Below, in pieces: positions 20,036-64,000 of a stretch of 64,000 nucleotides of DNA. Position numbers and translations under genes: made by a program. The stretch spans positions 40,260,998 through 40,324,997 of the forward strand of contig JAHRHZ010000016.1 of assembly GCA_024137785.1 (NCBI GenBank), given 5' to 3'. The notes below the pieces were generated by a model. The model was not told where the DNA came from. It was given only the letters and a program-made list of their open reading frames with translations, and searched no databases. The DNA comes from Ginglymostoma cirratum. Lineage: Eukaryota. How positions within the stretch are numbered: position 1 is the first letter of the stretch; each line of letters begins with the position of its first letter.

Positions 20036-20255
20036 CAGAAATGCTATATGGAAAAATAATTCTTAACAGTTTAATTTACCCTTCCGCATAACTTTTCCTG
20101 AGCATCAAAGCATTTTATACAGCAAACAACAGCATTTTCTGACAGAAAATTATCCTGGTACTTTCTCCTCCTTAATGATATGTTTTTCTGTTATTTGTAA
20201 TTGAATTGTGTCATTAATTCCACTCAATTGTGGAACTAGCAAAGTTACTGCTTTT

Positions 20256-21688
20256 AAGATAACAAGCATGGGGCTGGATGAACACAGCAGGTCAAGCAGC
20301 ATCACAGGAGCAGGAAAACTTGACGTTTCGGGCCTAAANNNNNNNNNNNNNNNNNNNNNNNNNNNNNNNNNNNNNNNNNNNNNNNNNNNNNNNNNNNNNN
20401 NNNNNNNNNNNNNNNNNNNNNNNNNNNNNNNNNNNNNNNNNNNNNNNNNNNNNNNNNNNNNNNNNNNNNNNNNNNNNNNNNNNNNNNNNNNNNNNNNNNN
20501 NNNNNNNNNNNNNNNNNNNNNNNNNNNNNNNNNNNNNNNNNNNNNNNNNNNNNNNNNNNNNNNNNNNNNNNNNNNNNNNNNNNNNNNNNNNNNNNNNNNN
20601 NNNNNNNNNNNNNNNNNNNNNNNNNNNNNNNNNNNNNNNNNNNNNNNNNNNNNNNNNNNNNNNNNNNNNNNNNNNNNNNNNNNNNNNNNNNNNNNNNNNN
20701 NNNNNNNNNNNNNNNNNNNNNNNNNNNNNNNNNNNNNNGGAGATGAGCTGGGCTGGTTTTGGGATGCGGTTGGGGGAGGGGAGATTTTGAAGCTTGTGAA
20801 ATCCACATTGATGCCATTGGGCTGCAGGGTTCCCAGGCTGAATATGATTTGCTGTTCCTGCAGCCTTCGGGTGGCATCACTGTGGCATTGCAGGAGGCCA
20901 AGGATGGACATGTCATCTGAGGAATGGGAGGGGGAGTTGAAATGGTTCGCGACTGGGAGGTGCAGTTGTTTGTTGCGAACTGAGCGCAGGTGTTCTGCAA
21001 AGAGGTCCCCAAGCCTCCGCTTGGTTTCCCCGATGTAGAGGAAGCCACAACGGGTACAGCGGATGCAGTATACCACATTGGCAGATGTGCAGGTGAACCT
21101 CTGCCTGATGTGGAAAGTCTTCTTGGGGCCTGGGATTGGGGTGAGGGAGGAGGTGTGGGGGCAGGTGTAGCACTTCCTGCAGTTACAAGGAAAAGTGCCG
21201 GGTGTGGTGGGGCTGGAGGGGAGTGTGGAGCGGACAAGGGAGTCGCGGAGGGAGTGGTCCCTCCGGAAGGCAGATAAGGGTGGGGAGGGAAAAATGTCTT
21301 TGGTGGTGGGGTCTGATTGCAGATGGCGGAAGTGTCGGAGGATGATGAGTTGGATCCGGAGGTTGGTAGGGTGGTATGTGAGGACGAGGGGGATTTTTTT
21401 TGGTTATTGTTGCGGGGACGGGGCGTGAGGGATGTGTTCCGGGAAATGCGGGAGACACGGTCGAGGGCGTTCTCGACCACTGTGGGGGGGGAAGTTGCGG
21501 TCCTTGAAGAATGAGGACATTTGAGATGTGCTTCCTCTACATCGGGGAAACCAAGCGGAGGCTTGGGGACCGCTTTGCAGAAACGTCAAGTTTTCCTGCT
21601 CCTATGATGCTGCTTGACCTGCTGTGTTCCTCCAGCCCCATGCTTGTTATCTTGGATTCTCCAGCATCTGCAGTACCTTTTATCTCTG
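20256..21688 (-). mobile_element. PLE family 1, GIY-YIG end with inverted pLTR and 14-bp TSD
   Basis: ORF VYCIRCTRCGFLYIGETKRRLG..FAEHLRSV...PVANHFNS..HS..D...GINVDF is a PLE GIY-YIG endonuclease. TSD aagttactgctttt at 20242-20255 and 21689-21702. Contains a 400-N gap. Confidence 0.92.
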
Positions 21689-22289
21689 AAGTTACTGCTT
21701 TTGTCTATCCAAACTCCTTGAAATCAACTAAAGTCCAACTATTTTTGACAAGAGCATTGCTCACAAATACATTTGACAATAAAGCTGGTCAGTCTGACAA
21801 AACCCGAAGAGATTAGAAACAGATATGAATCAACAGCATTTGGTCATACATTTCAAACATTGATTTTATGATTACAAGAACCACTCACATTCAAAGCTAA
21901 AATACAAGTTGTCAGAAAATTCAATTCTATTTACGTGTTGCCAAACACAGTGGCTAATCTGCAATCTTGAAGAAGATGGAATTTGATTCTCTCAGTATAG
22001 CAGACATTAGCAATTTAAAATAGCAAACAACATTTTTCATTGGAAGACAGGGCATTTTGTTTTCAATCTTCAAGAAGCTTCACACCATCTGCTCACTATT
22101 TTCAAAAGGATAAGCACAAAGCTATAAATTTATAGACTCTACATGTAGCCGTGTGACACCATAGGTCAGTCAGTGGGTGCAGTGTCTGAAAAGGAATTTC
22201 AATTTCTTCCGCAATAAAATCCTTGTTCTTAGTCGTACAAAATTTAAAAAATAAATCCTCCAACCTTCAGCATATTTTGAAACAAATAC

Positions 22290-23625
22290 TAAGAAAATGC
22301 TGGGAACGATAGACCAGTGAGTCTGACTTCAGTGGTGGGTAAGTTGTTGGAAGTGATTTGGAAAGATAGAATTGGAGAGGGAAGGAAAAATTATGGATAA
22401 TTAGCATGGTTTTGTGTGAGGGAAATTGTGTCTCACAAACTGGATTGAGTTTTTTAAGGAAGTAACCACGAAGATTGATGAGGGTAGAGGGGTAGACATT
22501 GTTTACTTGGACTTTAGAAAAGCCTTTGTCAAGGTTCCGCATGGTAGACTAATTAGTAAAGTTAGATCACGTGGGATTCAGGGTGATCTTGCCTATTGGA
22601 TGCAAACTTGGCTAAACGGCAAAGATAGAGAGTAATGGAGGAGGGTTATTTTTCAGATTGGAGGCCTGTAACCAGCAATGTTCCAGAGGGATTGGTGCTG
22701 GGTACACTTTTATTTGTCAGTATAAAAATAATTTAGATAAGAAAATAGAAGGCATGGTTAGTAAGTTTGCAGATGAAACCAAATTGGTGGTCTAGTGGAC
22801 TGTGAAGGTGGTCATCTACAAGGGGACATTGATCAACTGGGTCAATGGGTTGAAGAATGGCAGATGGAGTTTAATTTGGATATATGCGAGGTCTTGCATT
22901 CTGGTAAAACAAACAAAGGCGGGACTTACAAATTAAAAGAAGGGCCTTGAGTAGTGTTGTAGACCAGACAGACCAAGGGTTCAGGTACATAATTCTTTGA
23001 TTTTAGTGTCACATATAAATAGTTTGGTAAAGAGGGTGTTTAGCATGGTTGCCTACATTGCTTAGACATTTGAGTATAGGATTTGGGACGTTATGTTGAG
23101 GTTGTACAGGCCGTTGATGAGGTCTCTTCTGGAGTAATGTGTTCAGTTCTGGTCACTCTGTTATAAGAAAGATATTATTAAGCTGGAGAGAGCTCAGAAG
23201 ACATTTACCAGGATGTTCCTGGGAATGGGGGAGTTGAGTTATAAGGAAAGACTGGGGCGTTTTTCACTGGAGCATAGGAAATTGAGGGTTGACCTTATGG
23301 AAATTTATAAAATCATGAGAGGTTTGGATAAAGTGAATAACAGGTGTCTTCCCTAGAGTGAGGAATTTCAAGACTAGGGGGCCTATTTTTAAGGTGAGAG
23401 GAGAAAGATTTAAAAAAGACGAGGGCAGTATATTTTTCCCTACACGAAGAGTGGTTTATGTATGGAATGAACTTCCAGAGAAAGTTATGGATATGGGTAC
23501 AGTTAGAATGTTTAACACATTTAGGTAATTACATGAATAAGAAATGTTTGGGGGGATATGGGCCAAGTGCAGGCAGGTTGGACTGAAGGGTCTGTTTCCG
23601 TGCTGTGTGACTCTCTGACTTTATG
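22290..23625 (+). mobile_element. CR1 LINE, RT domain to 3' end, decayed
   Basis: CLTNWIEFFKEVTTKIDEGRGVDIVYLDFRKAFVKVPHGRL; KFADETK; tail gggtctgtttccgtgctgtgtgactctctgact. Confidence 0.9.
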
Positions 23626-23744
23626 AAATGACCTTTCAATCTAGTCCAGAACGGCTGTGGTCAATCCCCTGCAAAAATGCTTTCCATGCATTTGGTAGTG
23701 AATATTGTAGCTTGTGTAATGCTTTGTCATAAAATAAAATAAAA

Positions 23745-23795
23745 AAACTGCGGATGCTGGAAATCTGCAATTAAAACACAGAGTGCCAGAGAAAT
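23745..23795 (-). mobile_element. PLE family 2-like pLTR 3' fragment
   Basis: aactgcggatgctggaaatctgcaattaaaacacagagtgccagagaaa. Confidence 0.5.
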
Positions 23796-24819
23796 GGTAT
23801 GACATCCTTCCACCGAGGAGTTGGAAGCCCAACTCTGCACTAATTTAGCCCACCCCAAGTGGGATACACCCATGGGATAGGAAGGGGATGTTGATACTTG
23901 GGGGTTTAGCTACGCAGGAACCTGAAAGTCATGGTCCGAGGTGCAGCCACCGTTGCCTTCCATCATCCTGTCAAGCATAAGTGCACAATGGAAATGAAAA
24001 TGGCAGCAATCAGAGTGGGCAATGTAAGTGTTGTTATTTGTCTGCAAGCTACAGCTAAGTGGAGCCCTTCAAAGGCCAAAGGGCTACACCAGTAAAGGCA
24101 TACCCGTACATTCCCCACATCATGAAAATGATACACATTTGTGAGCTCAGCATGCCTTGTGATTCTTTGGCTTTAGGCGACCGTGCGCAGTTCAATTTCT
24201 TGACTCAAACTCTCTTGGTCATTTCGTGTTGGCTAATGGCTGAATGCTATGAATGCCTATGACTGGGCACCTAGAGAGATGAAGCCAAGTTGCCCAGGTT
24301 GCGAGTCACCCATTGCCTGCTCATGGGGCAGTAACTGCTCACTTCACAGATCATCATCTACAGATCAGGATCAGTGGCTTCAGCACATTCAACAATGCTG
24401 TACAGAGACTCACACAAGCAGGTTAGAGTGAAGTCATAACTTTGCTAGAGGCAGATGTCACCTGAGCCACCAAAAGATATACCTGTACCTTTCCCTCCCA
24501 GTACATCTCAGTGCAGTCCCACCCCAAAGGGCAGGACAATCTCAAAAAGCAGGATGCAAATTCTGCTGAAGTCATCTTTGCAAAGGAGAAAAATATTGTG
24601 TTCTCACTGGAGCAGCTAAATCATTTTGCACACAAATAAATGGCCAGAAAGAAGCACAAAAATGGCACGTACAAATGATCACTGGAGGGAAATCAACTGA
24701 AGATTCTAGTGAATCATTCTACACCTTGCAACCGGTTGGTTCAGTCAAGTTAATAGATGATATATGGTTTGTGACATTTGGAATGAAAACCGCAGAAACA
24801 GAACATCAGGTCGACATAA

Positions 24820-26500: not shown

Positions 26501-26527
26501 ACCCTTACAGCACAGAAGCTGCAGGGA

Positions 26528-26630
26528 AGCAGCTTTCCTGTTCCTATGATGCTGCTTGGCCTGCTGTGTTCATCCAGCTCTACACCTTGTTATCTCAGAT
26601 TCTCCAGCATCTGCAGTACCTATTATCTTT
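26528..26630 (+). mobile_element. PLE family 1 pLTR 3' fragment
   Basis: agctttcctgttcctatgatgctgcttggcctgctgtgttcatccagctc...ctgcagtacctattatct. Confidence 0.8.
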
Positions 26631-26685
26631 CTTACACTAAGTATGCAGCCAACTTCCAAAGCCAACGGTTTCTACACAATATAGA

Positions 26686-27320: not shown

Positions 27321-27414
27321 GGACAACACTAGGTGTAGTGAGAGGGAAGGAAAGAAAATAACTTTTTTAGTGCACTTTGGTGGCTTGGGTGACAATGTGC
27401 TGCATACAAGGTAT

Positions 27415-27594
27415 GAGAGATAATAGGAACTGCAGATGCTGGAGAATCCGAGATAACAAGGTGTGGAGCTGGATGAACACAGCAGGCCAAGCAGCATCAT
27501 AGGAGCAGGAAAGCTTGATGTTTCGGGCCTAGACCCTGCTCCTATGATGCTGCTTGGCCTGCTGTGTTCATCCAGCTCCACACCTTGTTATCTA
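27415..27594. mobile_element. 180-bp PLE family 1 fold-back unit with 17-bp TSD
   Basis: Perfect 59-bp inverted arms 27451-27509 and 27535-27593; TSD tgctgcata(c/t)aaggtat at 27398-27414 and 27595-27611. Confidence 0.9.
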
Positions 27595-27724
27595 TGCTGC
27601 ATATAAGGTATCACATTTACGAAACTCTGATCATTCTAATACTACAACTGTTTATTTGGCTCTGTCTTTAGCCCTAAATGTAAGTGTGCCAGCGAGATGC
27701 CTAACTCCATATTCATACAGGATG

Positions 27725-36179: not shown

Positions 36180-37740
36180 AACCCTAGTTCAATGGAGAGT
36201 GCAGGAAGGCATGTCAGGAACAGCACCAGGTATACTTAAAAATGAGATGTCAACCTGGTGAAGCTACCAAACAGGACAATTTGTCTGCAAAGCAGCAAAT
36301 GACGGACAGAGATAACAAGTTGTGGGGCTGGATGAACACAGCAGGCCAAGCAGCAANNNNNNNNNNNNNNNNNNNNNNNNNNNNNNNNNNNNNNNNNNNN
36401 NNNNNNNNNNNNNNNNNNNNNNNNNNNNNNNNNNNNNNNNNNNNNNNNNNNNNNNNNNNNNNNNNNNNNNNNNNNNNNNNNNNNNNNNNNNNNNNNNNNN
36501 NNNNNNNNNNNNNNNNNNNNNNNNNNNNNNNNNNNNNNNNNNNNNNNNNNNNNNNNNNNNNNNNNNNNNNNNNNNNNNNNNNNNNNNNNNNNNNNNNNNN
36601 NNNNNNNNNNNNNNNNNNNNNNNNNNNNNNNNNNNNNNNNNNNNNNNNNNNNNNNNNNNNNNNNNNNNNNNNNNNNNNNNNNNNNNNNNNNNNNNNNNNN
36701 NNNNNNNNNNNNNNNNNNNNNNNNNNNNNNNNNNNNNNNNNNNNNNNNNNNNNNNNCAAGCTTTCCTGCTCCTATAATGCTGCTTGGCCTGCTGTGTTCA
36801 TCCAGCCCCACAACTTGTTATCTCGGATCCTCCAGCATCTGCAGTACCTTTTATCTCTAATGACGGACAGAACTAAGTGATCCCATAACCAACAGAGCAG
36901 ATCTATGCTCTGGAGTACCACCATATCCAGGTATGAATGGTGGTAGACAGTTAAACAACTCCCTGGAGGAGGAGGGTTTACAAATATCGCCATCCTCAAT
37001 AATGAAAAAAGACCAACACATAAAAGCAAAAGATAAAGTGGAAGCATTCGCAACAATCTTCAGTCAGAAGTGCTGGGTGGATGGTCCATACTGGCCTCCC
37101 CTGGTGGTCCCCAACATCACAGATGACAGTCTTCAGCCAGTTTGATTCATGCTGTGTGATGTCAAACATTTGGAGACACTAGGTACTGCAAAGACTATGG
37201 ATGCTGACAACATTCCGGCAATAGTACTGAAGACTTGTGATTAAGAACTTGTTGCTCCCCTAGCCAAGCTGTTCCAGTATATTTGCAATGCTGGCATCTA
37301 CCTGGCAATGTGGAAAATTGCCCGAGTATGTAAAAAGCAGGACAAATCCAACCGACCAATTACCACTCCATCAGTCGACTCTCGATCATCAATAAAGTGA
37401 TGGAAAGTGTCATTAACAGTGTTATCAGTCAGCACCTGCTCAATAATAACCTGCTCAGTGATGCCCAGTTTGGGTTCCACCAGGTCACTCAGCTGCTGAC
37501 CTCATTATGGCTTTGGTTCAAAGATGGACAAAAGAGAATGCTGGAGGTGAGGTGAGAGTGATGGCACTTGAAATCAAGGTCACGTTCAGCCAAATGTGGG
37601 ATCAAGGAGCCCTAGAAAAACTGGAATCAATGTGTGTAAGGGGGCAAATTCTCCACTGGTTGGAGTCATTCCTGGCACATAGATTGTGGTTGTTGAAGGG
37701 CAGTCACCTTAGGTCCAGGACATCTCTGCAGGAGCTCTGC
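36180..37740 (+). mobile_element. LINE family B ORF2 fragment hosting a PLE fold-back
   Basis: MRCQPGEATKQD; KAKDKVEAFATIFSQKC; WKIARV; ALVQRWTKE..GEVRVMALEIK. Confidence 0.88.
36311..36858. mobile_element. PLE family 1 fold-back unit with 13-bp TSD (400-N gap inside)
   Basis: Inverted pLTR arms sharing the private variant caagttgtgggg; TSD aatgacggacaga at 36298-36310 and 36859-36871. Confidence 0.88.
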
Positions 37741-42087: not shown

Positions 42088-42215
42088 ATCAGTTCTGAGG
42101 ACCCGAAACACTAACTCTGTTTTCTCCTTCACAGATGCTGCCAGACCCGCTGAGCTTTGCCAGCAACTTTGTTTTTGTTCCTGATTTACAGAATCTGCAG
42201 TTCTTTTGGTTTTTA
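42088..42215 (+). mobile_element. PLE family 2 pLTR, HHR stem II deleted
   Basis: cagttctgaggacccgaaacactaactctg...agatgctgccagacccgctgagc...atctgcagttc. Confidence 0.75.
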
Positions 42216-44029: not shown

Positions 44030-44198
44030 GAGATTCATTTAAGATGCGTCTGGACAGATGCATGGGTGGGTGGGGAGCAGAGGGATACAGATCCTTAGGA
44101 ATTGGGTGATAGGTTTAGACAGTGGATTTGGATTGGCACAGGCTTGGAAGGCCGAACGGCCTGTTCCTGGGCTGTAAGTTTTCTTTGTTCTTTGTTCT
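44030..44198 (+). mobile_element. CR1 3' end, same family as the 47200 element
   Basis: ggagcagagggatacagatcctt...ggcctgttcctgggctgtaagttttctttgttctttgttct; ttcctgacaga at 44008-44018 and 44205-44215 may be a TSD. Confidence 0.85.
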
Positions 44199-44349
44199 AA
44201 GGTGTTCCTGACAGAGGATCAATGGAGAAGACACTAAACATTTTGGAAGATGTAACCTGGCTGCAATTTTGAGAGACAATGTTCTAATTTTTTTTGGTTT
44301 ATGTAAGTGTGACTTGTATTTATTAGAACAGAGTACCATTAGAATTTTG

Positions 44350-44449
44350 GAGATAACACAGTGTGAAGCTGGAGGAACACAGCAGGCCAGGCAGCATCAG
44401 AGGAGCAGGATGCTCCTTTTGGTCTGATTCATCAGCAGTTCTTATGATC
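44350..44449. mobile_element. 100-bp PLE fold-back unit (older subfamily) with 15-bp TSD
   Basis: Minus-strand pLTR arm gagataacacagtgtg...aggagcagga, then plus-strand tgctcct...gcagttctt..atc; TSD accattagaattttg at 44335-44349 and 44450-44464. Confidence 0.8.
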
Positions 44450-44914
44450 ACCATTAGAATTTTGTTTTATTTGGAAATAATTAGTAGTTAGAGGGGAATT
44501 GTTTGGTTTGTTAATAGTTCAATTAATTTGTTCACTGTTAGAGTTAGATAAATAAATTGTTACTTGTTGATTATAGAGTGAGTGTCAGGAGTTTCTTTCA
44601 TTTAACCACTCCTTTGAAAAAGATTGGGGGTGAGCGACAGGTTATTACCACTCTTCACACTTCTTTTAACAGATTATGGGATAAGGGTCTGGGCACCTCT
44701 CTGGGTGTTTCAGTTTTAGTTATCAGAGTGGGGTCAACCTCTATAACATGAAGAGAATGGCCCTGAGGTATGTCTTGAGTGGATAGATAGATGCTCTGAA
44801 CTGGCAAAACTAAATAGTAGTTCATGGAAGTGTTTTGTGATAAATGTCAATAACTAAAGACCAGCAGACTGCCTGAATTGCTGTTATGATAAATAATGAA
44901 CATTCAAATATAAA

Positions 44915-47030: not shown

Positions 47031-47044
47031 AAGGAGCGTAGTCA

Positions 47045-50000
47045 GAGATAAAAGGTACTGCAGATGCTGGAGAATCCAAGATAACAAGCATGGGGCTGGA
47101 TGAACACAGCAGGTCAAGCAGCATGAGAGGAGCAGGAAAGTTGATTTTTCAGGTCGGGACCCTTCTTCAGAAATGGGGAGGGGGAAGGGAGCTGGGGAAT
47201 AAGAACAAAAGAACAAAGAAAACTACAGCACAGGAACTGGCCCTTCGGCCCTCCAAGCCTGTGCTGATCCAGATCTTCTATCTAAACCTGTTGCCTATTT
47301 TCCAAGGATCTGTATCCTTCTGCTCCCTGCCCGTTCATGTATCTGTCTAGATATGTCTTAAATGACGCTATCGTGCCCGCCTCTACCACCTCCGCTGGCA
47401 ATGCGTTCCAGGCACCCACCACCCTCTGTGTAAAGAACTTTCCACGCATATCTCCCTTAAACTTTTCCCCTCTCACCTTGAAATTGTGACCCCTAGTAAT
47501 TGAATCCCACACTCCGGGAAAAAGCTTTTGCTATGCACTCTGTCTATACCTCTCATGATTTTGTAGACCTCAATCAGGGCCCCCCTCAACCTCCATCTTT
47601 CTAATGTAAATAATCCTAATCTACTCAACCTCTCTTCATAGCTAGCGCCCTCCATAACAGGCAACATCCTGGTCAACCTCCTCTGCACCCTCTCCAAAGC
47701 ATCCACATCTGTTTGGTAATGTGGCAACCAGAACTGTACGCAGTATTCCAAATGCGGTCGAACCAATATCCTATACAACTGTAACATGACCTGCCAACTC
47801 TTGTACTCTATACCCCGTCTGATGAATGGAAGTATGCCCATTTTCTTCCAAATGTAAATAGATCCTATCCCTCAGTATCTTCTCCAGCAGCTTCCCCACC
47901 ACTGACGTCAGGCTCACCGGTCTATAATTTCCTGGATTATCATTGCTACTCTTCTTAAACAAGGGGACAACATTAGCAATTCTCCAGTCCTCCTGGACCT
48001 CACCTGTGCTCAAGGATGCTGCAAAGATATCTGTTCAGGCCCCAGCTATTTCCTCTCTCGCTTCCCTCAGTAACCTGGGATAGATCCCATCCGGACCTGG
48101 GGAGTTGTCCACCGCAATGCCTTTTAGAATACCCAACACTTCCCCCCTCCTTACGCCGACTTGACCTAGAGTAATCAAACATCTATCCCTAACCTCAACA
48201 TCCGTTACATCCCTCTCCTCAGTGAATACGGACGCAAAGTACTCATTAAGAATGTCACTCATTTTCTCTGACTCCTCGCATAACTTCCCTCCTTTGTCCT
48301 TGAGTGGGCCAACCCTTTCTCTAGTTATCCTCTTGCTCCTTAATTGCGAATAAAAGACTTTGGGATTTTCCTTAACCCTGTTTGCTAAAGATATTTCCTG
48401 ACCCCTTTTAGCCCTCTAAATTCCTCATTTCAGATTGGTCCTACTTTCCCAATATTCTTCCATAGCTTTGTCTGTTTTCAGTCGCCTAGACCTTATCTAT
48501 GCTTCCTTTTTCCTCTTTGCTAGTCTCACAATTTCACCTGTCATCCATGGTTCTGTAATCTTTCACTTTTTATCCCTCATTTTCACAAGGACATGTCTGT
48601 CCTGCACTCTAATCAACCTCTCTTTAAAAGCCTCCCACATATCAAATGTGGATTTACCTTCAAACAGCTGCTTCCAATCCACATTCCCCAGCTCCTGCCG
48701 AATTTTGCTATAGTTGGCGTTCCCCCAATTTAGCAGTCTTCCTTTAGGACCACTCTCGTCTTTGTCCATCAATATTGTAAAACTTATGGAATTGTGATCT
48801 CTATTCCCAAAGTAATCCCCAACTGAAACTTCAACCACCTGGCCGGGCTCATTCCCCAACACCAGGTCCAGTATGGCCCCTTCCCGAGTTGGACTATTTA
48901 CATACTGCTCTATAAAACCCTCCTGGATGCTCCTCAAAAATTCTGCTCCATCTAAACCCCTAACACTAAGTGAATCCCAGTCAATGTTTTGAAAATTAAA
49001 ATCTCCCATCACCACCATCCTATTGCTCCTACATCTTTCCATAATCTGTCTGCATACTTGTACCTCTATCTCACGCTCGCTGTTGGGAGGCCTGTAGTAC
49101 AGCCCCAACATCGTTACCGCACCTTTCCTTTTTCTCAGCTCTGCCCATATTGCCTCACTGCTCGAGTCCTCCATTGTGCCCTCCTTCAGCACAGCTGTGA
49201 TATCCTCTTTGACCAGTAATGCAACTCTACCCCTTTTACCTCCATCTCTATCCCACCTGAAGCATCTATATCCTGGGATATTTAGTTGCCAATCTTACTC
49301 TTCCCTCAACCAAGTCTCAGTAATAGCAATAACATCATACTCCCAGGTACCAACCCAAGCCCTAAGTTCATCTGCCTTACCTACTACACTTCTCGCATTA
49401 AAACAAATGCACCTCAGACCACCTGTCCCTCTGTGTCCATCATCTGATCTCTGCCTACTCTTCCCCTTAGTCACACTGTCTTCATTATCTAGTTCCTTAC
49501 AGGCTTTAGTTAGTACCTCCTTACTGTCCACTATCCTCCTCATTTGATTCCCATCCTCCTGCCACATTAGTTTAAACCCTCCTCAACAGCGTTAGCAAAA
49601 CCACCCCCTAGGACTTTGGTTCCAGTCTTGCCCAGGAGTAGACCGTCTGATTTGTAATAGTCCCACCATCATGTGGTCTAACAACAGCTGCAGCTGGACA
49701 CACTTCCTGCACTTGTACGAGTCAGAGACATCAGCCGCGTCCCTGAGCTTCCACATTGAGCAAGAGGAGCATAACACGGGTCTGGGATCTCCTGCCATTT
49801 TTACTCTTAAGCTTAGCTTAGTCCTACTATAATATCAAATAATAGATAAATGAAATGAAAAAACTTTTACCAATCACGCTACATACCAGCACACGATAAA
49901 AAAAAGAGAGAGGGAAGGTGTGGGTTTGGGGAAGGTAGGTGGGATGGTGATAGGTGAGTGCGGGTAGTGAGTGGTGGGGATTGGTCAGTGGGATGGGTGG

Positions 50001-50776
50001 GGCAGATAGATGGGAGAGAAGATGGACAAGTTGTGTCAGGTCAAGGAGGTGGGAATGAGAGGGAGTGTTGGACATGGGATGAGGCCGGGGGTGGGGAGAT
50101 TTTAAAACTGGTGAATTCTATGTTTGGGCCATCGGGCTGTAGGCTCCCGAGGCAGAATATGAGGTGCTGCTCCTCCAGTTGCACGTAGTGTCGTTGTGAC
50201 ACTGGAGAACGCCTGGGATGGACATGTCATCCAGGGAATGGGAGGGGGAGTTAAAATGGTTCGCAACCGGAAGGTGTTGTCGTTTGTTGTGTACATCGCG
50301 TAGATGCTCTACAAAATGGTCTCCAAGTCTATGCTTGGTCTCACCAATGTAGAGGAGGCCACGTCGAGAGCAATGGATACAGTCGACCGAGTTTAGGGAT
50401 GAACAGGTGAACCCCTGTCCAATGAAAGGTTTGTTTTGGGCCTTGAATGGAGGTGAGGGGAGAGGTGTAGGGGCAGGTGTAGCACTTCCTGTGGTTGCAG
50501 GGAAAGGTGCCGTGGGTAGTGGGGTTAGTGGAGAGTTTTGAGTGGATGAGGGAGTCATGGAGAGAGCAGTCCCTACGGAAGGCAGATAGGAGTGGAAAGG
50601 AGAATATCTCTTTGCTTGTGGGGTCAGAATGTAGGTGGCAGAAGTGGCAGAGAATGATACGTTGGATGTGGAGGTTGGTGGAGTGATATGTGAGGACAAG
50701 GGGGATTCTGTCTTTATTTTTGTTGTGGTGAGCTCCACACTGTGTTATCTCTGACTCCAGCATCTGCAGTTCTTCC
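47045..50776 (-). mobile_element. PLE (GIY-YIG end) with inverted pLTR stub and 13-bp TSD, split by a CR1 insertion
   Basis: IHCSRRGLLYIGETKHRLGDHFVEHLRDV...PVANHFNSPSHSLDD; RIPLVLTYH. TSD aggagc(g/a)tagtca at 47032-47044 and 50777-50789. Minus-strand HHR ttctgaagaagggtcccgacctgaaa at ~47145-47172. Confidence 0.9.
47200..49890 (-). mobile_element. Near full-length CR1 LINE (5'UTR, ORF1 remnant, EN, partial RT, 3' tail) with two internal deletions
   Basis: ORF1 zinc finger CSSCSMW...CRKC; esterase tail YYKSDGLLLGKTGTKVL; APE endonuclease FNARS, ITETW, YRPP, MGDFN, LDLVL, DH; RT flanks NYRPVSLTSVVGK and VRPHLEYCVQFW; (ttctttg)n tail. Confidence 0.93.
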
Positions 50777-50966
50777 AGGAGCATAGTCATGTTTTTCAAA
50801 TGGGATATTTACTATATACTACGTTCTTGTTTTATATTTTATATTTATATTCTAATGTGATTCTACTTTGACGAACCTCACATTTTTAAAAAAAATCAAT
50901 TTTGTGTTTTCTTTCATGAAGTTCCCTTTAAACCCAGAGGGAAGTTAAGTTCTGGGGAAACAATTT

Positions 50967-51707: not shown

Positions 51708-51985
51708 TTTATAACCAGAATTGCTAGCTTGAGATCACATCTGAGAAATGTTCATGTGGCCTAACTTGTTATGGAGATGAGAGACAAAAAGAGAAAAATC
51801 ATACAGACAAGCAACTGGGACTAAGGTTGTAGCTTGAGTTATAAGCAGGAAACAAAGAGATTCTCACAGAAACTCTGGTGGTAGAAGAAGTAAAACTCAC
51901 AGAAAAGGGTATTTTCTGTTCAGTAGTAAAGATCACTGGGAGATGAAGCAAAACTTTCTATCAGACCTGACTAGGCTATTAGTGG

Positions 51986-52107
51986 AGAAGAAGGGTCCCA
52001 ACCCGAAACATTAGCTTTCCTGCTCCTCTGCTGCCTGGCCTGCTGTGTTCCTCCAGCTCCACACTGTGTTATCTCAGACTCCAGCATCCGCAGTTCTTGC
52101 TATCTTT
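51986..52107 (+). mobile_element. 122-bp solo PLE pLTR starting inside the HHR core, 14-bp TSD
   Basis: gaagaagggtcccaacccGAAAcattagc...gcagttcttgctatct; TSD taggctattagtgg at 51972-51985 and 52108-52121. Confidence 0.88.
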
Positions 52108-55100
52108 TAGGCTATTAGTGGGATTTAGTCAAGGGTTGAAACAAATGAGTCTCTGGCAATCTTGTGTGGTGACTGGATGAGTGAAAAGGTTCATTAAGGT
52201 GTTTCTTGCTGGTAATAATTGCATTTGGAAAATTCAAATTGGATGAAATGGTTAATGAAGGACCTTAGACGATTTAGCCTGGCATAATGAAGAGTGGTGG
52301 AAATTAATTGGAAAGCTGAGAGGAACTTTGGGATTTATTATATTGTGCCTTTAATGTCTGTAGTATTGATTTAAAGTGAAATTTATCTTTTACATTCAAG
52401 AAAAGCAAATGTTTTATTGACTGGCACCTATGGGACCAGGAGTGTGCCAGTTGATCAAATATTTTGGTTGATCCAGAGGTCCACATAATTATTGTAAAGA
52501 AATAGAAATGTAATGCAGTGGGTATACATATCAATGTTTAACAGTAGTTATAGATTAAATCACTTAATTAATAATGCAACTTTGCCTTAAATAAAATTAA
52601 CGCCAGGGAACCTTCTCACTCACACCCTCACCTGATTACTTGGACATGGTGGAGATTGCAATAATACAGTAAACTTCTGGTATTTCAGGTAGATAATTTT
52701 TGCCAGTTTATCGAGAGTGCCAGTTAAAAACAAAGTTTGCTGTATTATTTATCTGTTAGTCAACTGATGTCTGATGTCTGATTCTAACAGTGTAGCAGAA
52801 TTTAATGTCCTTCCTTGAGGGGAGTTTGAAGTTGGGTAGCAGAATCCACTTCCAGTATCATCTTCCCCAGTGAAATGTCCCCAGCCTCAAGTCCTTGACC
52901 TGGGAAGGTCTGCCTCTGGCTGCTGTTTGTCTGGCACTTAAACTGTAGATTTTTTCCTAAAGGATGTAGGGCGGGGCTCTTGCCAGCTCTCTAGCTGTCA
53001 GGGGGCACTGTTGTATAGTGTAAATTCCAACCTCTGACAAAAATGATATGGCAAAGTTAGTACAGGTTTTCTTATATCATATTATCACAATATGTGTGTG
53101 TGTGTGTGTTTCAAGCTATTAACCAATATAGTTCAAAGTGTGACATTGGAGTGACAGCTAAGATCCCTGCTGCAAACACAAGTTCCTCGGGGCAATGCTA
53201 TTAAGCTTTATAATTGTGTAGAACTGTGATGCTGTCACAGCCCGTGTCAGAATTAAGCTTGAGTTAGTGTCCGTGCACAATAAATATTTTATACCCTGCA
53301 CTTTAAGGGCAGTCCTTCTCATTCCATTAGCTAGAAACGATTGAGATATTAGACTACATATCACAACTGATTCCGTGAATGTTCTTTGCAGTTTTAAAAA
53401 TTTTATATGAACCTTGTATGTTTTGTATCCTTCAATCCAATATTTAATGCCTATTTGTTATTGTATCAATAAAACAGAATAAAAAAGAAAAAAGTGAAGT
53501 ATATTTTTTCGTTTGCATTAGTTGTTAATTTGTCATTAAACATATAATAGTTCTTTTTAGTGATTTTTTTCCACATTGAAGGTAAGAGGTGTTAGTATGT
53601 GGAATGGAGGTGAGAGTGATCAATTATCAGGATTAAGCATTCCCAGGCCAGATGAACTTTGAGTTCAATGCAGGCAAAGAATTATTTTCTTCAGACTTAA
53701 CCATGTCTCTTAACCCCAATAAGATTCTATTTAAAACAGTCTTATAAATAAACTGTTTGTGTGGATTCATCTTCATTAGAAGTGGACTGAGGTTAACCAA
53801 ACTCTTTTCACTTTCAATCACTTTGGCCATATTGGAATGTTACATCTCAGAAATCTGTAATGGATTTGAACCTCGTTCCCAGTGATAAAAATACTTAGTT
53901 TCTCCCCTCTTTTAGGCAGCCCCTAAGGAACAGAATATGTTGTGGGTCCTGAGCTGGCTAGATGGTTCGATACTACATCTGTAAACTCTGCTGGCTGGTG
54001 TATGCTGAGGTGGGTGAGTGGGTTTCTCAGGTCTTTGCACCATCTTGTGTTTCTTCCCATTGGCTTCCGTCTGAACCTATCAGAGGCGCTTGAAATTGTT
54101 GGCCCTTTGGCAGATGCTACTACGCCACAATTTTGGGTTCGACATTCCCACAAGTCAGTGAAGCTATTTTTCTGGGAGGCTTTGAGGATGTGATTGAATT
54201 GTTTCCTTTGCACACCTGGTGAATTTACCATGACAAAGTTTGGAGAAGTTAATCACTATACCACACTCCCACTTTATTTTTGTTCAGATGCAATGCTACT
54301 TTCATTCTCAGATTTTATTTTGAACATTGTCGAGATGTTATTATAATGAGGAATTTAGGTTGTAGACAGAATCAGAATAAAATGTAGTCAGGCTGTGATA
54401 TCTTGCCACAAATACAATATAATTAAAAGGAACACCTTAGAACTGTGTATCCAGATTATGTAACTTTCACACACGGCAATGATGTTCTGTACTCAAGCTC
54501 TGGTCCAAATGACCCATGATTTTTTCCTCTACAGACCTTTTAATTTTGCTTAATTTTCCCACTTTAATTCCTTCCTTTTTTAGTTACTGAATGAGATAAT
54601 GTCACATTATAATGCTCTGGGTTACACACAGCCATGTCTCTGGGGAATGCATTGGTTAGAGAAAACATACACTGATCAACCGATGTATATTTTGCCAAGA
54701 GGAATGGCAAAAGAACCATAGATCATACAAGGAAACGCGCACTGACTCTCCCCATGACTGCCCAGGTACACCTGACAAAACCTGAACAAGCCATGGCACT
54801 ACCTAACTGAGTACCTGACTAATCCACCACACGATTGCACATCTCAAACAAAGTTGAAAGTCACTTCTAACCTGACTCGATCCACTCCCTCCAATCCACT
54901 TACCCACCTGCCACCTTACACATTTGTTGCCTTACCCACTACTTGCCACACTGTCCATTTACCTCACCCACCTTATTGACTTAGCCTACTCAAATAATCA
55001 CTCATTCACCTATTCACTAATTTTCACATCGGATATTTAAACTTATTTTAGCTGGTGCCTTCAAATGGCGGTGGGGGGGGAGGGGGATGGTGTTGGTGAT

Positions 55101-55339: not shown

Positions 55340-55500
55340 GGAATTGCAGATTCAATAACTTTCAAAATGGATTTGGATCAATACATGAAGGAAAACCTTG
55401 TCAGATTATAGGGAAAATATGGGGAGTGGGATGAATTGGATAGTTTTTTTTCTGAGGCTGGCCTAGGCATGATGATTGAATAGTTTCCATCAATTCTTTG
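55340..55500 (+). mobile_element. Old CR1 3' fragment
   Basis: gattcaataactttcaaaatggatttggatcaatacatgaagg...ggggagtgggat. Confidence 0.55.
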
Positions 55501-56587: not shown

Positions 56588-56700
56588 CTCTAATCAACCT
56601 GTTCTATGATGTTATTACCGATCTCTGGAGCAGTTGGGCCTTGAACACAGGCTTCCTGGCTCAGGGATAGGGACACTAGCACTGCACCATGAGAGAACCC
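56588..56700 (-). mobile_element. Short tRNA-derived SINE
   Basis: Minus strand catggtgcagtgctagtgtccctatccctgagccaggaagcctgtGTTCAAggcccaactgctccagag...gaacaggttgattag (A/B boxes). Confidence 0.65.
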
Positions 56701-57299: not shown

Positions 57300-58290
57300 C
57301 TACCAGTGGATGACTGAGACCCAACGTCGCAGTGATGCTCACAGGATGGTCATAGACATCTGTATCCTTCTCATACCTGGTACCTCACACCTCGTGGAAC
57401 TGGTCATCATACTCTGGCAGTAACTGTCAAAATCTCCATGGCCCTGAACATTTTCACTTCTGGACCCTTTCAATAATCAGACATTGGTGACATCTTGCAA
57501 ATGATTGCACCTCATTGGTTAATGGTGCACTCTTTCATCATTCACTGTCCCCATGTGGCTACCACTACCTCTGTGTCCAATTGGGCTGTGACCATAACAC
57601 AGTTTCATGTGTTTAATTGAGACCATAACATCATGTGTATACTCAGTCTCTTGGCAGCCACCATGGCCCTTTCATCCTGTGCCTATTCTTTGCTTCAGCC
57701 CCTGAGTGTGTTGATGGATCAAAGGGAATAATCATACCATAGAATCCCTAGAGTGTGGAAACAGGCCCTTTGGCCCAACAAGTCCACACTGATCCTCAGA
57801 GCATCCCACCTGGGCCCATCCCTCTATAACCCACCTAAACTACACATCTCTGAATACTATGGGCAATTTAGCATGACCAATCCACCTAGCCTGCACATCT
57901 TTGGACTGTGGGAAGAAACTGGAGCACCTGGAGGAAACCCACGCAAACACAGGGAGAATGTGTAAACTCCACACAGTCGCCCGAGGGTGGAATTGAACCT
58001 GGGTCCCTGGCGCTGTGAGGCAGCAGTGCTAACCACTGAGCCACCGTGCCACCCCCAATAAGGAATATCCTCAAAGTAGCTATTCATCCGTTTCAAAGGG
58101 GCCCAGACGGAAGTATGGAAGCAACACAGCTAACGCAACCTGTTCAGTAGGACAACACTACGCTTTTGAAGATGTAGTTCCACTGCCTGGATCAATCAAT
58201 ACACTCCAGCAAGGCTCACAATCATTGGGTTGGTTCATCCCACATTGCAATACATGGCTTAATAGGGATATGTGGGTCTTGAGTGTTAGG
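57300..58290 (+). mobile_element. PIF/Harbinger transposase remnant interrupted by HE1
   Basis: VKISMALNIFTSGPFQ (N-terminal HTH region) at ~57427; LLKM*FHCLDQS..YTPAR at ~58160 (C-terminal DDE region, cf. LLKMRFRCLDRS). Confidence 0.65.
57732..58055 (-). mobile_element. HE1 SINE, full length
   Basis: Minus strand ggggtggcacggtggctcagtggttagcactgctgcctcacagcgccagggacccaggttcaattcc; tail ttctatgg/tatga. Confidence 0.92.
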
Positions 58291-60507
58291 AGGGCCTTGA
58301 AGGAGTCAGAAATGAGGCAGGAAGAGGAAGAGAATGATGATGAACATAGAGTTGCCCCTGCTGCTTAATAAGGTGGCATTCCCTGCCACTCTTGAAGGAC
58401 AGGATCTCTTGCACAGCATCCAAAGTTGTATTCAGGTCATCATCGATGAAGTGAAGGTCTGACCTGCCTTGGGTGCCAGGCCTGTGACACACCATTGACA
58501 TCTTACAGTGCAGTTTGTATAATTAGACACAAGCCACAGAAGTCTCCCTCAAGACAACCAGCAGCCTCACTGAAAACTGCTACAAGGTTTTCAACACTTC
58601 ATCAGTCACCTCCATTCCAATTCCCACTGGTTCAAAATGTGCAGGCACACAGTCTCCATATGAAATAAGGGCTCACACTTGTGAACATCTGAAATAGAAT
58701 CAGCTTTCCATTGGAGGCATGCTTCTGTCTCTAAAAGCTCAACCAGTTTGTGATTTCCTGTCTCTGGGATGAAAGTTCATCCTCTTTTATTGCATTTGAA
58801 AATCTGTTCTGACTTGTATACTATTCTGTCAAAGTTCACCCATATAGGTGAAATATCATAATTATTACCAGTCTCCACTTTATCCACCATGATGCATATT
58901 GCAGAAATATTTTCACACTGAGGCTAATCAGGCTAAATACCAGTGTATATGATTCTGGAGTCAGGATATGGGGCCAATTTTAGTAACGTAAATCTAGAGA
59001 ACAAGTCTCATGGATTTGTTGCCTGAAGGAGTTCTATATAAAAGCACAGCTTCTTTTGAATTTAAAATGATAGTTTTCTGTTGTAATGTAAAGATAAAAG
59101 CCCCTTCTGAATTTATTGCTTATAAGCAAGGCAATTTTTATCAGTATCAAATGAAACTGAAGGAAGGTGGCTCATGTAGCTGTGGTTGATTACATGCTGG
59201 TAAAGGGCAAAAACACTTTGAAGTGTCAGGCCTCACTGCTTCAAAAAAATAAGAAATCACCGAACCATAAAAGTTGTTAAGAACAAAATCAAAGACATGT
59301 ACTGTGATTCGATCACACACTTGCAGACTCCTTTTTTCTATACAGTTTATTTACAAAATGTATTAAAATTCCTTTCTTTTACAACACCTCATTACTGAGA
59401 CTCAGTAAATGATGTCCAATCATGCATTTTTATGCTTTAAATATTTGCTATTTTGCTTGTTAACATTTCTGTGTTTGCTGAAGTGCAGTTTTAACAAAAA
59501 ATTTTTTTAAGTGACTACAGCTTAACTTCTATAGCTTGAAGTTAATAGCAGGAAGTGTAGGCAATCATGCAAGTTTAAAAAGAATGAAAATAACTCAAAT
59601 CCTTCACCTCTATGAAGTTGATCACTCTTGAAAACTGACACAAGTTGATAAATCTACATTGGTTCTGTTCATATAATCCTTTAAAAAATTATTTTTTTGT
59701 TTTCCTATAGATACTTTATCTGTGGAGCTTTGATTAACCCTTTCTCACCTGATCAATTCACTCTTGATTCAAATTAAATCTTCTCAATAATCAGACACTT
59801 GAAAATATTCAGGGAGGAAATGGTTAAACACATTTGCTCCTATATAAAAGTAGGCCATTTCATTGTACATGATTGTTCACATTCTGTTTGACATCTTGAT
59901 AGCCGCTTTCTTCTCCTCCACACAGATTGGATGCTAACCCACTGAATTTCCATCTTGTAATATTAACAGAGGTAATTAGTATGTAGGTACTTCACTGAAC
60001 AGCCTGAATTTAATTAAAAAAAACTTACAATTATGGTTCTTCTCTCACAGAAAAGATATCATGTAAGAATTTAACCTTTGTACTTGGCAGGAATTATGTA
60101 ATTTTTAAAATTGCCATTATTTGTTAGTGAATCATTCATTAAAGGAACAGATTTTATACATTTAATTTATGTTGCACATTTCTTTCAAGTTCCTTTCCAA
60201 TTTTTAATTTTATTTGGTACAAGGAAACTACCTTGGCTCTCAAAGTGATAAATTTCAATATTATTGTTCAGATATTTTATACATGAAACCTTTTCTCTGC
60301 AATAGTTGTGTTATCAAATGATGGCTTTTTGCTGAACTAAATTGATTTTATTTCAGTATATAATTTCACAGAGAAGCTTGATTCATTTTTTAAACTCTGT
60401 CCTGTATTTTCAAGCAAGCTAGACTCTTATTGTGATTCAGAATGATGAGTTGCATTGTTGTGATTCTCCATTATGTTCCATAAGGCACTGAAGGAGTATT
60501 CAGTTTT

Positions 60508-60672
60508 TTATGAAAAGTCTGGTGCACCATCAGCCACTCTGGTACCATGTCTGACACCTGGTACAGCGTGCGGTGACCGCAGGTAGTCAGGGGTCATGGC
60601 ACGGCCGTTTTCTCCAATGCTCCCAAATATGGACAGTGTTCCTTTATTTTGCGTGGCATCAGTGTAAGTGAG
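60508..60672 (-). CDS. Candidate terminal coding exon of an unidentified minus-strand gene (54 aa plus stop)
   Basis: Strong acceptor ttctttttttcccacttctctgtaacacAG; phase-0 frame LTYTDATQNKGTLSIFGSIGENGRAMTPDYLRSPHAVPGVRHGTRVADGAPDFS*; GC/CpG-rich patch in AT-rich unique DNA; minus-strand AATAAA motifs downstream. Confidence 0.55.
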   Translation of the reverse strand, partial: LTYTDATQNKGTLSIFGSIGENGRAMTPDYLRSPHAVPGVRHGTRVADGAPDFS

Positions 60673-61471
60673 CTGTGTTACAGAGAAGTGGGAAAAAAAG
60701 AATATATACTATTAAAAATTAAAGTCTTAAGTACATCACAGCAAAGTTTATGGGTTGACTGACAAATGAATGCTTTGCTTGACACATTGATTTCCAAAAT
60801 GTGATGCAGTTCCCATAGTGCAATGAAAATGTCTGATAAGTTGAAACAAAACACTGAAAAGGAGTCAAAGTAAATTAGATTACTGACTGTCTAAAATTAA
60901 TGCATTTCCAGTCATGCATTGTAATATTTTCAAAGAGATTATATGCAGTTCCATGCAGCACCAAACTTGGCATAATTATAGCAAAAGTTATTATAGAATT
61001 GCTTATAGAATTGGACACAAAGATTTGTAGACTTCACAACTGCTGTTAAAATTATGAACAGCCAAGGGTGGGTATCACTAACAGCTGTAGATCTTCTATG
61101 ACTCAGATACCTCGAAGGTAATATAAAAGACCTAAAAATATTTAATTTGCTCATTCAGACTCCACTCATGTCAAATTTTAATTTAGTCTGATTAGTACAG
61201 CTGCTGTTAATGCCGGTCACTTCTATCCCAGCAGAGACTATCCTTCACATCACCTGTCATAGATATCTGAGTTTAGAATTGTGAATTCACCCGTTCCCCA
61301 TTCTTGTCTGAATTGAGACTTGCAGAAAAATTATTTTCCTTTTAATTTATTTTAGTTTGTGACAAATGGTAATTTTTCGTAATATATACACCTCATGATT
61401 CCACTGCAGAAGAGCTTTGGTTCTATCTTGATCAAATGCACATTTTTAAATTATGCCTGTGGCTTTTATCC

Positions 61472-62170
61472 TCAAATCTCACTCCAGGGACTTGAACATA
61501 AACATCTAGGGTTTTTAAAATATTTGTTAATGGAATGAGGGTGTTTCTGGTTGGGGCAGCATTTGTCACAATTCTTAATTGCCCTTGAGAAAATGGTTGG
61601 GAGTCGATTTCGTGAATTCCTGCAATCTGTTTGGTGCAGATAGATTGACAAACCTACTAAGGAGGGTGTTCCAAGATTTTGATTCAATGACACTGAAGGA
61701 ACGGAATATTTCCAAGTCAGGGTGTTGGGTGGCTTGGAGGGGACCGTGAAGATAGTATCTTCCCATGTATCTACTGTCCTTGTCCTTCTAGATGGTTGTG
61801 GTCATGGACTTGGAAGACGCTGTCTATGGAGCCTTGGTGAATTTGAAGTGCATCTGTGGTTACTACACACTGCTGCTACTGAGCTTTGGTGGGGGAAGGA
61901 GTGAATATTTGTGAATGTGGTGCCATTCAAGCGGGCTGCCATGTCGTAGATGGTGTCAATCTTCTTGAATAGTGCTGCGGACAAGTGGGATGTATTCCAT
62001 CACACTCCTGACTTGTGCCCTGTAGACTGTGGACAAGGCTTGGGGACTCAGGGGGCAAGTTACTTGCTGCAGAATTCCTGGGCTCTCACCTGCTTTTATA
62101 GCCAATGTATTTATGCAGCATTGCAGTTTTAATGAAGTGCCTCACTGTTAGAGGTGCTGTCTTTAGGAGT
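61472..62170 (+). mobile_element. DeuSINE (SacSINE1/AmnSINE-like) fragments split by a LINE (61472-61510 and ~62133-62170)
   Basis: tcaaatctcactccagggacttgaacataaacatctagg ... gtgcctcactgttagaggtgctgtcttt resembles the recalled DeuSINE 5' region. Confidence 0.4.
61511..62130 (-). mobile_element. LINE family B 3' part
   Basis: gcatttgtcacaattcttaattgcccttgaga...tgtggacaaggcttggggactcagggggcaagttacttgctgcagaattcct. Confidence 0.8.
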
Positions 62171-62701
62171 GTGAGTGCTCAGCCATTCAAGATCATAATT
62201 GATATTCTAGCAACACCATATTCTCACACTATACCCATATTCCTTGATGTCACTCATAACTAGAAATCTATCAATTGCTATCTGGAACCTACTTAATCAC
62301 TGAACATTGATAGCCCTCTGGGGTAGAGAATGCCAATCATTCACTACCCTGAGAGAAGATGTTCTTCCCTGTCGCTGTCCTAAAATGCTTGCTTTTTATT
62401 CTGAGATTTGTGTCCTCTGGGTCTAGAACCCATAGTTCGGGGAAGCTTACTTTTTATGTCTACCCTGTCTACCCCTTTAAGATACGCGATCGGCTCTCAT
62501 TTTTCCAAACTCCAGAGAATCTCGATCCAGTCTCCTCAAAGATCAGTCTCGCCATTCCAGCAGTCAGTCTGGTGAACCTCTGTTGCACTTCCAAGATGGG
62601 CAGTATATATTCCTTAGGCAAGACGGCCAGATCTGCTCACAATACTTGCGCACGTACGTGCTAGCTTTCAGTGATGAGTAAACCAAACAAAGCTACTTAG
62701 A

Positions 62702-63453
62702 GATAAAAGGTACTGCAGATGCTGGAGAATCCGAGATAACAAGCATGGGGCTGGATGAACGCAGCAGGTCAAGCAGCATCATAGGAGCAGGAAAACTTGA
62801 CGTTTCGGGCCTAAACCCTTCATCAGAAATCATTTCTGATGAAGGGNNNNNNNNNNNNNNNNNNNNNNNNNNNNNNNNNNNNNNNNNNNNNNNNNNNNNN
62901 NNNNNNNNNNNNNNNNNNNNNNNNNNNNNNNNNNNNNNNNNNNNNNNNNNNNNNNNNNNNNNNNNNNNNNNNNNNNNNNNNNNNNNNNNNNNNNNNNNNN
63001 NNNNNNNNNNNNNNNNNNNNNNNNNNNNNNNNNNNNNNNNNNNNNNNNNNNNNNNNNNNNNNNNNNNNNNNNNNNNNNNNNNNNNNNNNNNNNNNNNNNN
63101 NNNNNNNNNNNNNNNNNNNNNNNNNNNNNNNNNNNNNNNNNNNNNNNNNNNNNNNNNNNNNNNNNNNNNNNNNNNNNNNNNNNNNNNNNNNNNNNNNNNN
63201 NNNNNNNNNNNNNNNNNNNNNNNNNNNNNNNNNNNNNNNNNNNNNNATTTCTGATGAAGGGTTTAGGCCCGAAACGTCAAGTTTTCCTGCTCCTATGATG
63301 CTGCTTGACCTGCTGCGTTCATCCAGTCCCATGCTCGTTATCTCGGATTCTCCAGCATCTGCAGTACCTTTTATCTCTGATACAATTTTAACCCCACTGC
63401 GAAGCCTCTTCTAAGGATTTCTGATGAAGGGTTTAGGCCGAAACGTCAAGTTT
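62702..63453. mobile_element. Young PLE family 1 fold-back/tandem unit with three HHR motifs and 15-bp TSD (400-N gap inside)
   Basis: CTGATGAa-gggtttaggccc-GAAAcGTC on the minus strand at ~62798-62826 and on the plus strand at 63251 and 63421; TSD acaaagctacttaga at 62687-62701 and 63454-63468. Confidence 0.92.
63248..63284 (+). ncRNA. Minimal type I hammerhead ribozyme motif
   Basis: ttt CTGATGA a GGGT-ttag-GCCC GAAA c GTC aagt: catalytic core, 4-bp stem II, palindromic ACGT stem III (dimer type), short stem I. Confidence 0.8.
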
Positions 63454-64000
63454 ACAAAGCTACTTAGATCTCTTTAGACAGCAACATTTTCCAATCTTTC
63501 ATTGCTTAAGAAACATTCTGCACATTAGTTCCTCCTACCAAGTGGATAACCTCATACTTATCCACATTGTACCCCATCTGCCATGCTTTTGCCCATTGAG
63601 GGAGTGTCACCCTGTCTAAATCCCACCGGAGCCTCTTTGTATACTCCTCAGAACTCTCACTCTCATGAAGTTTTGTATTAAATGTAATCTCGGAAATATC
63701 ACAATTTAGTTCATGGGACCTTTTATTTGGGTGCCACATTTCCTACTTTGAGTGTCAATACACTTAAAAAGCACTTCCATCCAGACCCTCAGAGAATCAC
63801 TCACCCAATCCCCCAGTCATCTACCCTCCCAGACACCATTCATTCCACCTCTCCAAGTCACTCACTCACTCATCCACACCCAAGGTACCTACCCCTTGTA
63901 GGCAAGTTACTCACTTGCCCAGTAGCCCCGGGCACTCACTCATCCTCCTCAAATCATTCACTTCAACACCCCCATCCCACCCCTGAGTTGCTCACCTATA

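Follow-up and report, generated by a model that had tools for sequence, protein, structure and literature searches.

Paired long and short ends in inverted Penelope-like element insertions of Ginglymostoma cirratum are consistent with priming at two RNA sites

Inverted insertions in the window

The window analysed here is a 64,000-nucleotide stretch of the 4.36-Gb genome of Ginglymostoma cirratum (assembly GCA_024137785.1, contig JAHRHZ010000016.1, positions 40,260,998 to 40,324,997 of the forward strand). It carries six insertions that, judged from their sequence, are truncated copies of a Neptune-type Penelope-like element (PLE) present in high numbers. They are built of inverted arms of the element's pseudo-long terminal repeat (pLTR) enclosed in a target-site duplication (TSD). 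Arms are oriented in the sense of the element RNA. An S end lies at the first TATCT motif and an L end at the second, which is located 33 nt 3' of the first (31 nt in an older subfamily). Most insertions of this kind join one L arm to one S arm, an arrangement that probably reflects two priming events at different sites of the RNA. A preliminary description of the window had listed six insertions, each within a TSD of 13-17 bp, and all six are present with duplications in this range.

20242..21702: insertion 1, S+L. TSD of 14 bp (20242-20255 and 21689-21702); S arm 20257-20338 (minus), 400-N gap, 3' remnant of the open reading frame (ORF) 20739-21529 (minus), endonuclease piece and L arm 21530-21687 (plus).
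27398..27611: insertion 2, ungapped hairpin. TSD of 17 bp with 1 mismatch (27398-27414 and 27595-27611); L arm 27416-27537 (minus), S arm 27535-27593 (plus).
36298..36871: insertion 3. TSD of 13 bp (36298-36310 and 36859-36871); S arm 36309-36355 (minus), 400-N gap, L arm 36757-36858 (plus).
44335..44464: insertion 4, older subfamily. TSD of 15 bp (44335-44349 and 44450-44464); S arm 44350-44410 (minus), decayed L-end remnant ~44423-44449 (plus).
47032..50789: insertion 5, an L+L exception. TSD of 13 bp with 1 mismatch (47032-47044 and 50777-50789); chimeric left arm 47044-47200 (minus), outer ~95 nt of the young subfamily and body of the old one; old-subfamily interior ~49900-50731 (minus); old-subfamily arm 50731-50774 (plus), ending 7 nt short of L.
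62687..63468: insertion 6, an exception. TSD of 15 bp (62687-62701 and 63454-63468); L arm 62699-62830 (minus), 400-N gap, arm 63247-63416 (plus), tandem stub 63417-63453 (plus).

The copies at 20256, 27415 and 36311 each have one long and one short arm, as had been described, and the two ends are 33 nt apart from motif to motif or 35 nt if the final CT is included. The copy at 44350 does stop at the short site with its S arm, but its long partner is only a decayed L-end remnant of ~27 nt, with a score equalled by 0-13 of 2000 shuffles across four references. The two-end rule proposed for all six copies thus holds for four of them, whereas those at 47044 (L+L) and 62699 (L plus read-through) do not follow it. 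The host DNA of insertion 3 is a repeat whose paralogues hold a single copy of the TSD sequence.

The chimeric left arm of insertion 5 may have arisen when an old end was later replaced by young cDNA, by gene conversion or by a template switch. This insertion is split by ~2.7 kb of unrelated repeat-like DNA (~47206-49890), the start of which resembles 44035-44198 reversed (77%). In the L arm of insertion 1, a 53-nt endonuclease piece (21530-21582) is joined straight to the pLTR, through an internal deletion or a template jump. The right arm of insertion 6 extends 40 nt beyond L and is followed by the 37-nt tandem stub, which ends 6 nt past a predicted hammerhead cut. The N runs of the window (20339-20738, 36357-36756 and 62847-63246) are all exactly 400 long and all lie within these hairpins, so the centres of three of the six insertions are unreadable.

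Further copies were taken from ~1.03 Mb of sequence, comprising nine blocks that include the window (833 kb readable) and four extensions (193 kb). This sample was no random draw, as 12 of the first 20 blocks of 50 kb were dropped as unreadable, and pair-type counts given below rest on it rather than on the whole genome.

Identity of the element

The ORF remnant of insertion 1 has one in-frame stop and encodes a CX4CxxC linker followed by a GIY-YIG endonuclease (EN) with CCHH residues. Its translation contains VVYC-C-CG-LYIGET...EH...NHF, the C-terminal combination that defines EN-containing (EN+) PLEs. The Pfam GIY-YIG match is under the curated cut-off (E=0.002). Another copy (L250) retains a putative reverse transcriptase (RT) fragment, GVAMG...RYIDD, with a weak RVT_1 match (E=0.12). 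No full-length or intact ORF was found among the copies in the sampled DNA. The linker that separates RT from EN reads CNCRKCYTC or CNRRKCYTC and has the CX2-5CxxC form. Such a linker is diagnostic of Neptune elements versus Penelope and Poseidon, and Nematis has a reduced linker (PMC8557442). By these diagnostics, the element appears to be of the Neptune or Nematis type, not of the Penelope or Poseidon type.

As in a pLTR, one sequence is present both after the ORF end and ahead of a likely ATG, and the tail measures 33 nt (31 nt in the older subfamily). In 30 copies that extend beyond L, the sequence enters this likely ATG ~45 nt after L, which places both S and L in the 5' leader. Most of these read-through copies are tandem junctions with end points scattered from +40 to +280. 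Copies beyond L at loci L231-L260 are mostly head-to-tail junctions with a 5'-truncated unit, and their ends form small clusters at about +40-50 and +110-150. A putative ribozyme motif is located ~65 nt ahead of S.

63247..63282 (plus): minimal hammerhead-like motif, recognized by eye from CUGAUGA, stem II, GAAAC and GUC; predicted cut after 63278.

A Rfam scan of the window at the gathering score returned no match, the hammerhead motif included.

Arm ends, pairing and target sites

Arms of the element end predominantly at two sites. Of 140 well-aligned arms, a tally that still contains some sister-family arms, L is the end point of 65 and S that of 52, and the other 23 end elsewhere. The earlier proposal of a fixed second end stands in that ends in the sample cluster at S and L instead of scattering, but the sites are not exact to the base, with a spread of -6 to +2 around S and -7 to +9 around L. 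Exact genome-wide counts for the young subfamily give 13,107 copies that stop at S, 28,603 that pass through S and 1,208 that extend 25 nt past L. Contigs from four public runs of four studies, which contain only ~30% of the stretch's words, break off loosely at these S and L positions too.

Head-to-head arms linked by a shared TSD are usually of unlike type. The pairing set consists of 139 arms, after 24 sister-family and 5 gap-cut arms were taken out. A TSD-link score of 8.5 served as cut-off, and a few pairs close to it may be due to chance; unrelated arm pairs reach a score of at least 9 in 1.1% and at least 11 in 0.1% of 4121 trials. The nine blocks yield 40 linked pairs (29 L+S, 7 L with an earlier end, 2 S+S, 1 L+L and 1 other) and 59 unpaired arms, and the extensions add five pairs (4 L+S and 1 L with an earlier end). 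Combined, 33 of 45 TSD-linked inverted pairs are L+S. When both arms end at one of the sites, the proportion is 33 of 36 (p=1.1e-7 against 50%). In 30 loci chosen by their S end, the linked partners are 8 L and 1 S arms. The 60 loci chosen by a long arm have 15 S partners, 1 possible L partner and 3 others, and the remainder are single or unresolved.

A sister PLE family that bears a hammerhead and has T-rich ends lacks the TTATCT sequence. Its 99 arms in the sample end at matching positions, and nine of its 11 TSD-linked pairs are L+S, with no L+L pair. Therefore, position or structure sets the end sites, and TTATCT is not the determinant of priming that it had been taken to be. A minimum free energy fold of the tail region gives no convincing structure joining S and L.

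The duplications are long and uniform, as had been claimed from the window. TSDs could be called in 49 of 50 L+S insertions, with lengths of 12 bp (1 insertion), 13 (4), 14 (16), 15 (15), 16 (9), 17 (3) and 19 (1). Thus 47 of the 49 fall at 13-17 bp, with a mode of 14-15. Thirty insertions with a single arm inside a TSD (18 L and 12 S) have shorter and more broadly distributed duplications, with a mean of 13.6 compared to 14.8 bp. For 13 of 56 insertions, paralogues that span the site exist in repeats. These empty sites carry one copy of the target and none has it doubled, which agrees with duplication upon insertion.

Target flanks are A-rich on both sides. In 48 discovery sites, positions -8 to -6 outside the two TSD ends hold A in 86 of 144 and 81 of 144 cases. 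The region from -8 to -1 is T-poor, AAC is a frequent reading, and -14 to -9 is at background. In held-out sites, a test fixed beforehand gave A in 132 of 258 positions versus 29.6% (p=4e-13), and the sister family shows the same preference (29 of 66, p=0.009). Single-arm insertions carry the signal on both sides as well (44 of 90 and 51 of 90), so the second nick is likely made by the element too. At four loci (L283, L284, L285 and L287, at ~1500), young copies sit right at the short end of older copies, which suggests that the element inserts preferentially into its own ends.

Arms outside the six hairpins also occur in the window.

51972..52121 (plus): single L-end arm of the older subfamily, with a 14-bp TSD (51972-51985 and 52108-52121); absent from the preliminary description.
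26531..26628 (plus): single L-end arm, with no TSD found.
6004-6107, 14373-14510, 16758-16856 and 42099-42208: arms of the sister family.

Probable priming from two nicks

Junctions and inner ends bear on how these hairpins form. At junctions without filler, microhomology has a mean of 1.9 nt for L, where 25 of 34 callable junctions qualify, and of 1.5 nt for S, where 23 of 27 do. Permutation over real targets gives 0.75 and 0.66, and none of 3000 permutations reaches the observed values. Of 32 L+S insertions without a gap, 29 have simple centres. In 13 of the 29 it is the S arm that extends further in the 5' direction, by up to 561 nt, in 11 it is the L arm, and 5 are ties. Because a copy of an L-primed cDNA cannot exceed its template in length, two separate cDNAs are implied. 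The centres themselves show small overlaps or fillers. The 5' end lies no more than 10 nt from the front edge of the hammerhead in 46 of 121 arms. An origin of 5' ends by hammerhead cleavage was rejected, as there is no peak at the predicted cut and 4 of 121 arms start within 25-33 of the core.

These features are probably explained by a dimer that nicks both target strands ~14 nt apart, each nick priming cDNA at a different start site on the RNA. A dimeric ribonucleoprotein would nick a loosely palindromic site twice in a concerted manner, leaving 3' overhangs of ~14 nt. Base pairing over 1-2 nt would then assist each 3' end in priming cDNA synthesis, with L used by one end and S by the other. 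The two cDNAs would halt independently, often by running off or stalling at the hammerhead front, and their 3' ends would be joined head to head via microhomology or a few filler bases. Fill-in would create the TSD. If only one cDNA were kept, a single L or S arm inside a TSD would result. The preliminary description proposed programmed twin priming for these copies, and two priming events at two defined RNA sites do provide the best fit. However, twin priming is one common outcome and not an obligatory one, since 12 of 45 pairs depart from the L+S rule and single arms with a TSD exist for both ends. The two start sites had already been published for the anole PLE.

Whether the two cDNAs share a template is a separate matter, on which the balance tips slightly toward one RNA molecule as the usual source of both. 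Here, site occupancy would account for the exclusivity of L and S, and the first cDNA would undergo strand displacement. A fuller version can be put forward only tentatively: a dimer that reads a palindromic target of ~30 bp (A-rich half-sites with a 14-nt stagger) might prime both strands on one RNA by default, with a subunit at each tail edge. The tail would then be the footprint between the active sites, and second-strand synthesis would be a second round of reverse transcription. Copying of both arms from one template had been argued from private variants shared within insertions, but these do not demonstrate it. The variant at 27.4 kb is a common subfamily haplotype, found also on both arms of two other insertions (b3_18381 and b6_30495), and some insertions have discordant arms. 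The variant at 36.3 kb is unique among 49 insertions, though it lies beside a gap. Arm haplotypes agree in 11 of 20 cases versus 7.3 upon permutation (p=0.019). Variant sharing cannot settle the question, because it would also be seen between two transcripts from a single source.

A variant with the same two-priming core supplies one template per subunit, either as two RNAs or as two pLTR copies of one tandem transcript, and derives the L/S asymmetry from priming order or geometry. This is rather unlikely but has several points in its favour: arm haplotypes are discordant in L175, L197 and the window copy at 47044, tandem units are common among read-through copies, and strand displacement is not required. 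It needs an extra rule for the rarity of L+L and S+S (3 of 36), the within-class haplotype concordance is slightly over permutation, and the discordance might stem from later gene conversion. An improbable alternative is snap-back, in which an L-primed cDNA would turn back and serve as its own template, with the element's endonuclease joining or cutting it at S. It accounts for shared variants, for L+S exclusivity and for overlaps of 1-7 nt at 13 of 29 centres. Such routes have been put forward as endonuclease-mediated resolution of the tail (PMC8557442) and as self-priming (PMC3846280). However, the longer S arms in 13 of 29 ungapped hairpins are impossible for a copy of an L cDNA, snap-back from an S cDNA cannot provide the tail, and 12 of 30 single arms in TSDs are lone S ends. 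As a sole route, snap-back is largely refuted.

Two further explanations have very little probability. Hairpins could be self-propagating units with fixed asymmetric ends, such as DNA elements that resemble miniature inverted-repeat transposable elements (MITEs) or retrozyme-like RNAs. Inverted termini, long uniform TSDs, sizes of 120-260 bp and very high copy number resemble such units, but the inner junctions vary between the 49 insertions, arms grade into ORF sequence, and single arms and tandem forms share the same ends and TSDs. An origin as a MITE or other DNA transposon was rejected, as symmetric fixed termini and a common interior are absent: the ends are asymmetric and the centres unique. 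It is slightly less probable still that short-read assembly of palindromes created the pattern. Fixed-size N gaps occur in 3 of 6 window and 17 of 49 sampled insertions, and gapped arms are nearly identical, as this would predict. Yet 32 of 49 insertions contain no gap and have arms that have diverged and TSDs that are unique, the contigs of the four public runs end loosely at the same positions, and empty paralogues support the TSDs.

Several observations weigh against the main explanation, in which the two nicks prime at different RNA start sites, beginning with the fact that all of the evidence is genomic. The 12 off-rule pairs comprise 8 of L with an earlier end, 2 S+S, 1 L+L and 1 other. 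Across 41 pairs, 9 rare variants are shared and 49 unshared, and in only 3 does an arm have its own partner as nearest relative among the arms. Eight of these pairs had been selected by an L-arm variant; this skews the counts away from sharing and at the same time shows that no homogenization of arms takes place. Arms of L175 and L197 differ in multi-base subfamily haplotypes. The comparison of inner ends includes too few perfect hairpins, because 17 of 49 L+S insertions are gapped. Finally, in the Poseidon element of Anolis carolinensis (PAc), no difference in start site was seen between top and bottom strands, which does not itself predict exclusivity, and the start is called non-homologous to the cut DNA (PMC11167929).

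Twin priming of L1, the model attributed to Ostertag and Kazazian in 2001, is reported to use both nicks as cDNA primers and to yield an inversion with a microhomology joint inside a TSD of ~15 bp. Its second primer reportedly acts at a variable internal site, and its two cDNAs are said not to overlap. The PLE likewise uses both nicks, but its second end is clustered at S and its arms overlap in the template, unlike L1 products.

Closer parallels come from PLEs themselves. In vitro, PAc cuts and extends both target strands (Frangieh 2024, PMC11167929). The tail is delimited by two internal positions at which reverse transcription begins, and a dimer is predicted (PMC11167929). The element studied here appears to resemble PAc in having two start sites 3' of a putative hammerhead that bound a tail of 30-40 nt, in using both strands and in its presumed dimer, as deduced here from genomic copies. 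It differs in belonging to another clade, with its CX2-5CxxC linker, and in having both sites 5' of the likely ATG rather than within the ORF. The accessible text on PAc gives an ATT cut preference and does not mention a rule for arm pairing, the length of TSDs, a symmetric target site or microhomology (PMC11167929).

In Pen2a of Adineta vaga, the tail is found on one of two inverted pLTRs and the unit lies in a TSD of 8-10 bp (PMC3846280). Craig et al. 2021 describe this one-sided layout as general for EN+ PLEs (PMC8557442), and Penelope of D. virilis has a 34-37 bp repeat (PMC2377424). The window insertions share with published EN+ elements an inverted 5'-truncated pLTR, a one-sided tail, one TSD around the whole unit and trouble in assembly. 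They differ in a TSD of 13-17 bp versus 8-10 bp and in that most copies are stumps of 100-260 bp. Unlike the reading given here, those papers, in the sections accessible, invoke self-priming or endonuclease resolution.

The inverted layout with a one-sided tail of 30-40 nt (PMC3846280, PMC8557442) and the two start sites and extension of both strands (PMC11167929) are therefore already known. What is added here is the rate of L+S pairing, the independent 5' ends of the arms, the junction microhomology of 1-2 nt, a symmetric A-rich target that is upheld by held-out sites, and the finding that a sister family devoid of TTATCT obeys the same rule. A literature search that did not extend to subscription papers (Arkhipova 2006 and Pyatkov 2004 among them) found no paper that counts L+S pairing or describes a symmetric PLE target or twin priming in PLEs. 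The accessible parts of bioRxiv 10.64898/2026.07.22.740005 and PMC12910113 hold nothing further on these points. The insertions bear a genuine genomic signature, with good support, of a behaviour already published for PLEs; they extend it to a second clade and supply numbers that can be tested. How PLE integration is completed and how inverted ends with a one-sided tail originate have been stated as open (PMC8557442, PMC11167929). With tens of thousands of stumps in one genome, L+S pairing, the ~14-nt stagger, the symmetric target and the priming homology of 1-2 nt can be tested in the existing in vitro system. Annotators should be cautious, as hairpins that look like MITEs can be products of a retroelement.

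A different arrangement, in which an S end and an L end stand tail to tail around a short spacer, was considered as a way to demonstrate that priming takes place on a single target duplex and set aside, as examples are too few. A search for S-spacer-L junctions gave seven matches, two of which are not element ends and four of which resemble a young copy at the end of an old one; S-S junctions occur at 2 loci and L-L junctions at none. Only L281 (~1450-1660) fits, together with L174 (~1440-1700) from another set. Both loci consist of an S end, a short target piece and an L end; some of the target piece is repeated outside, and this layout is possibly an alternative resolution of double priming.

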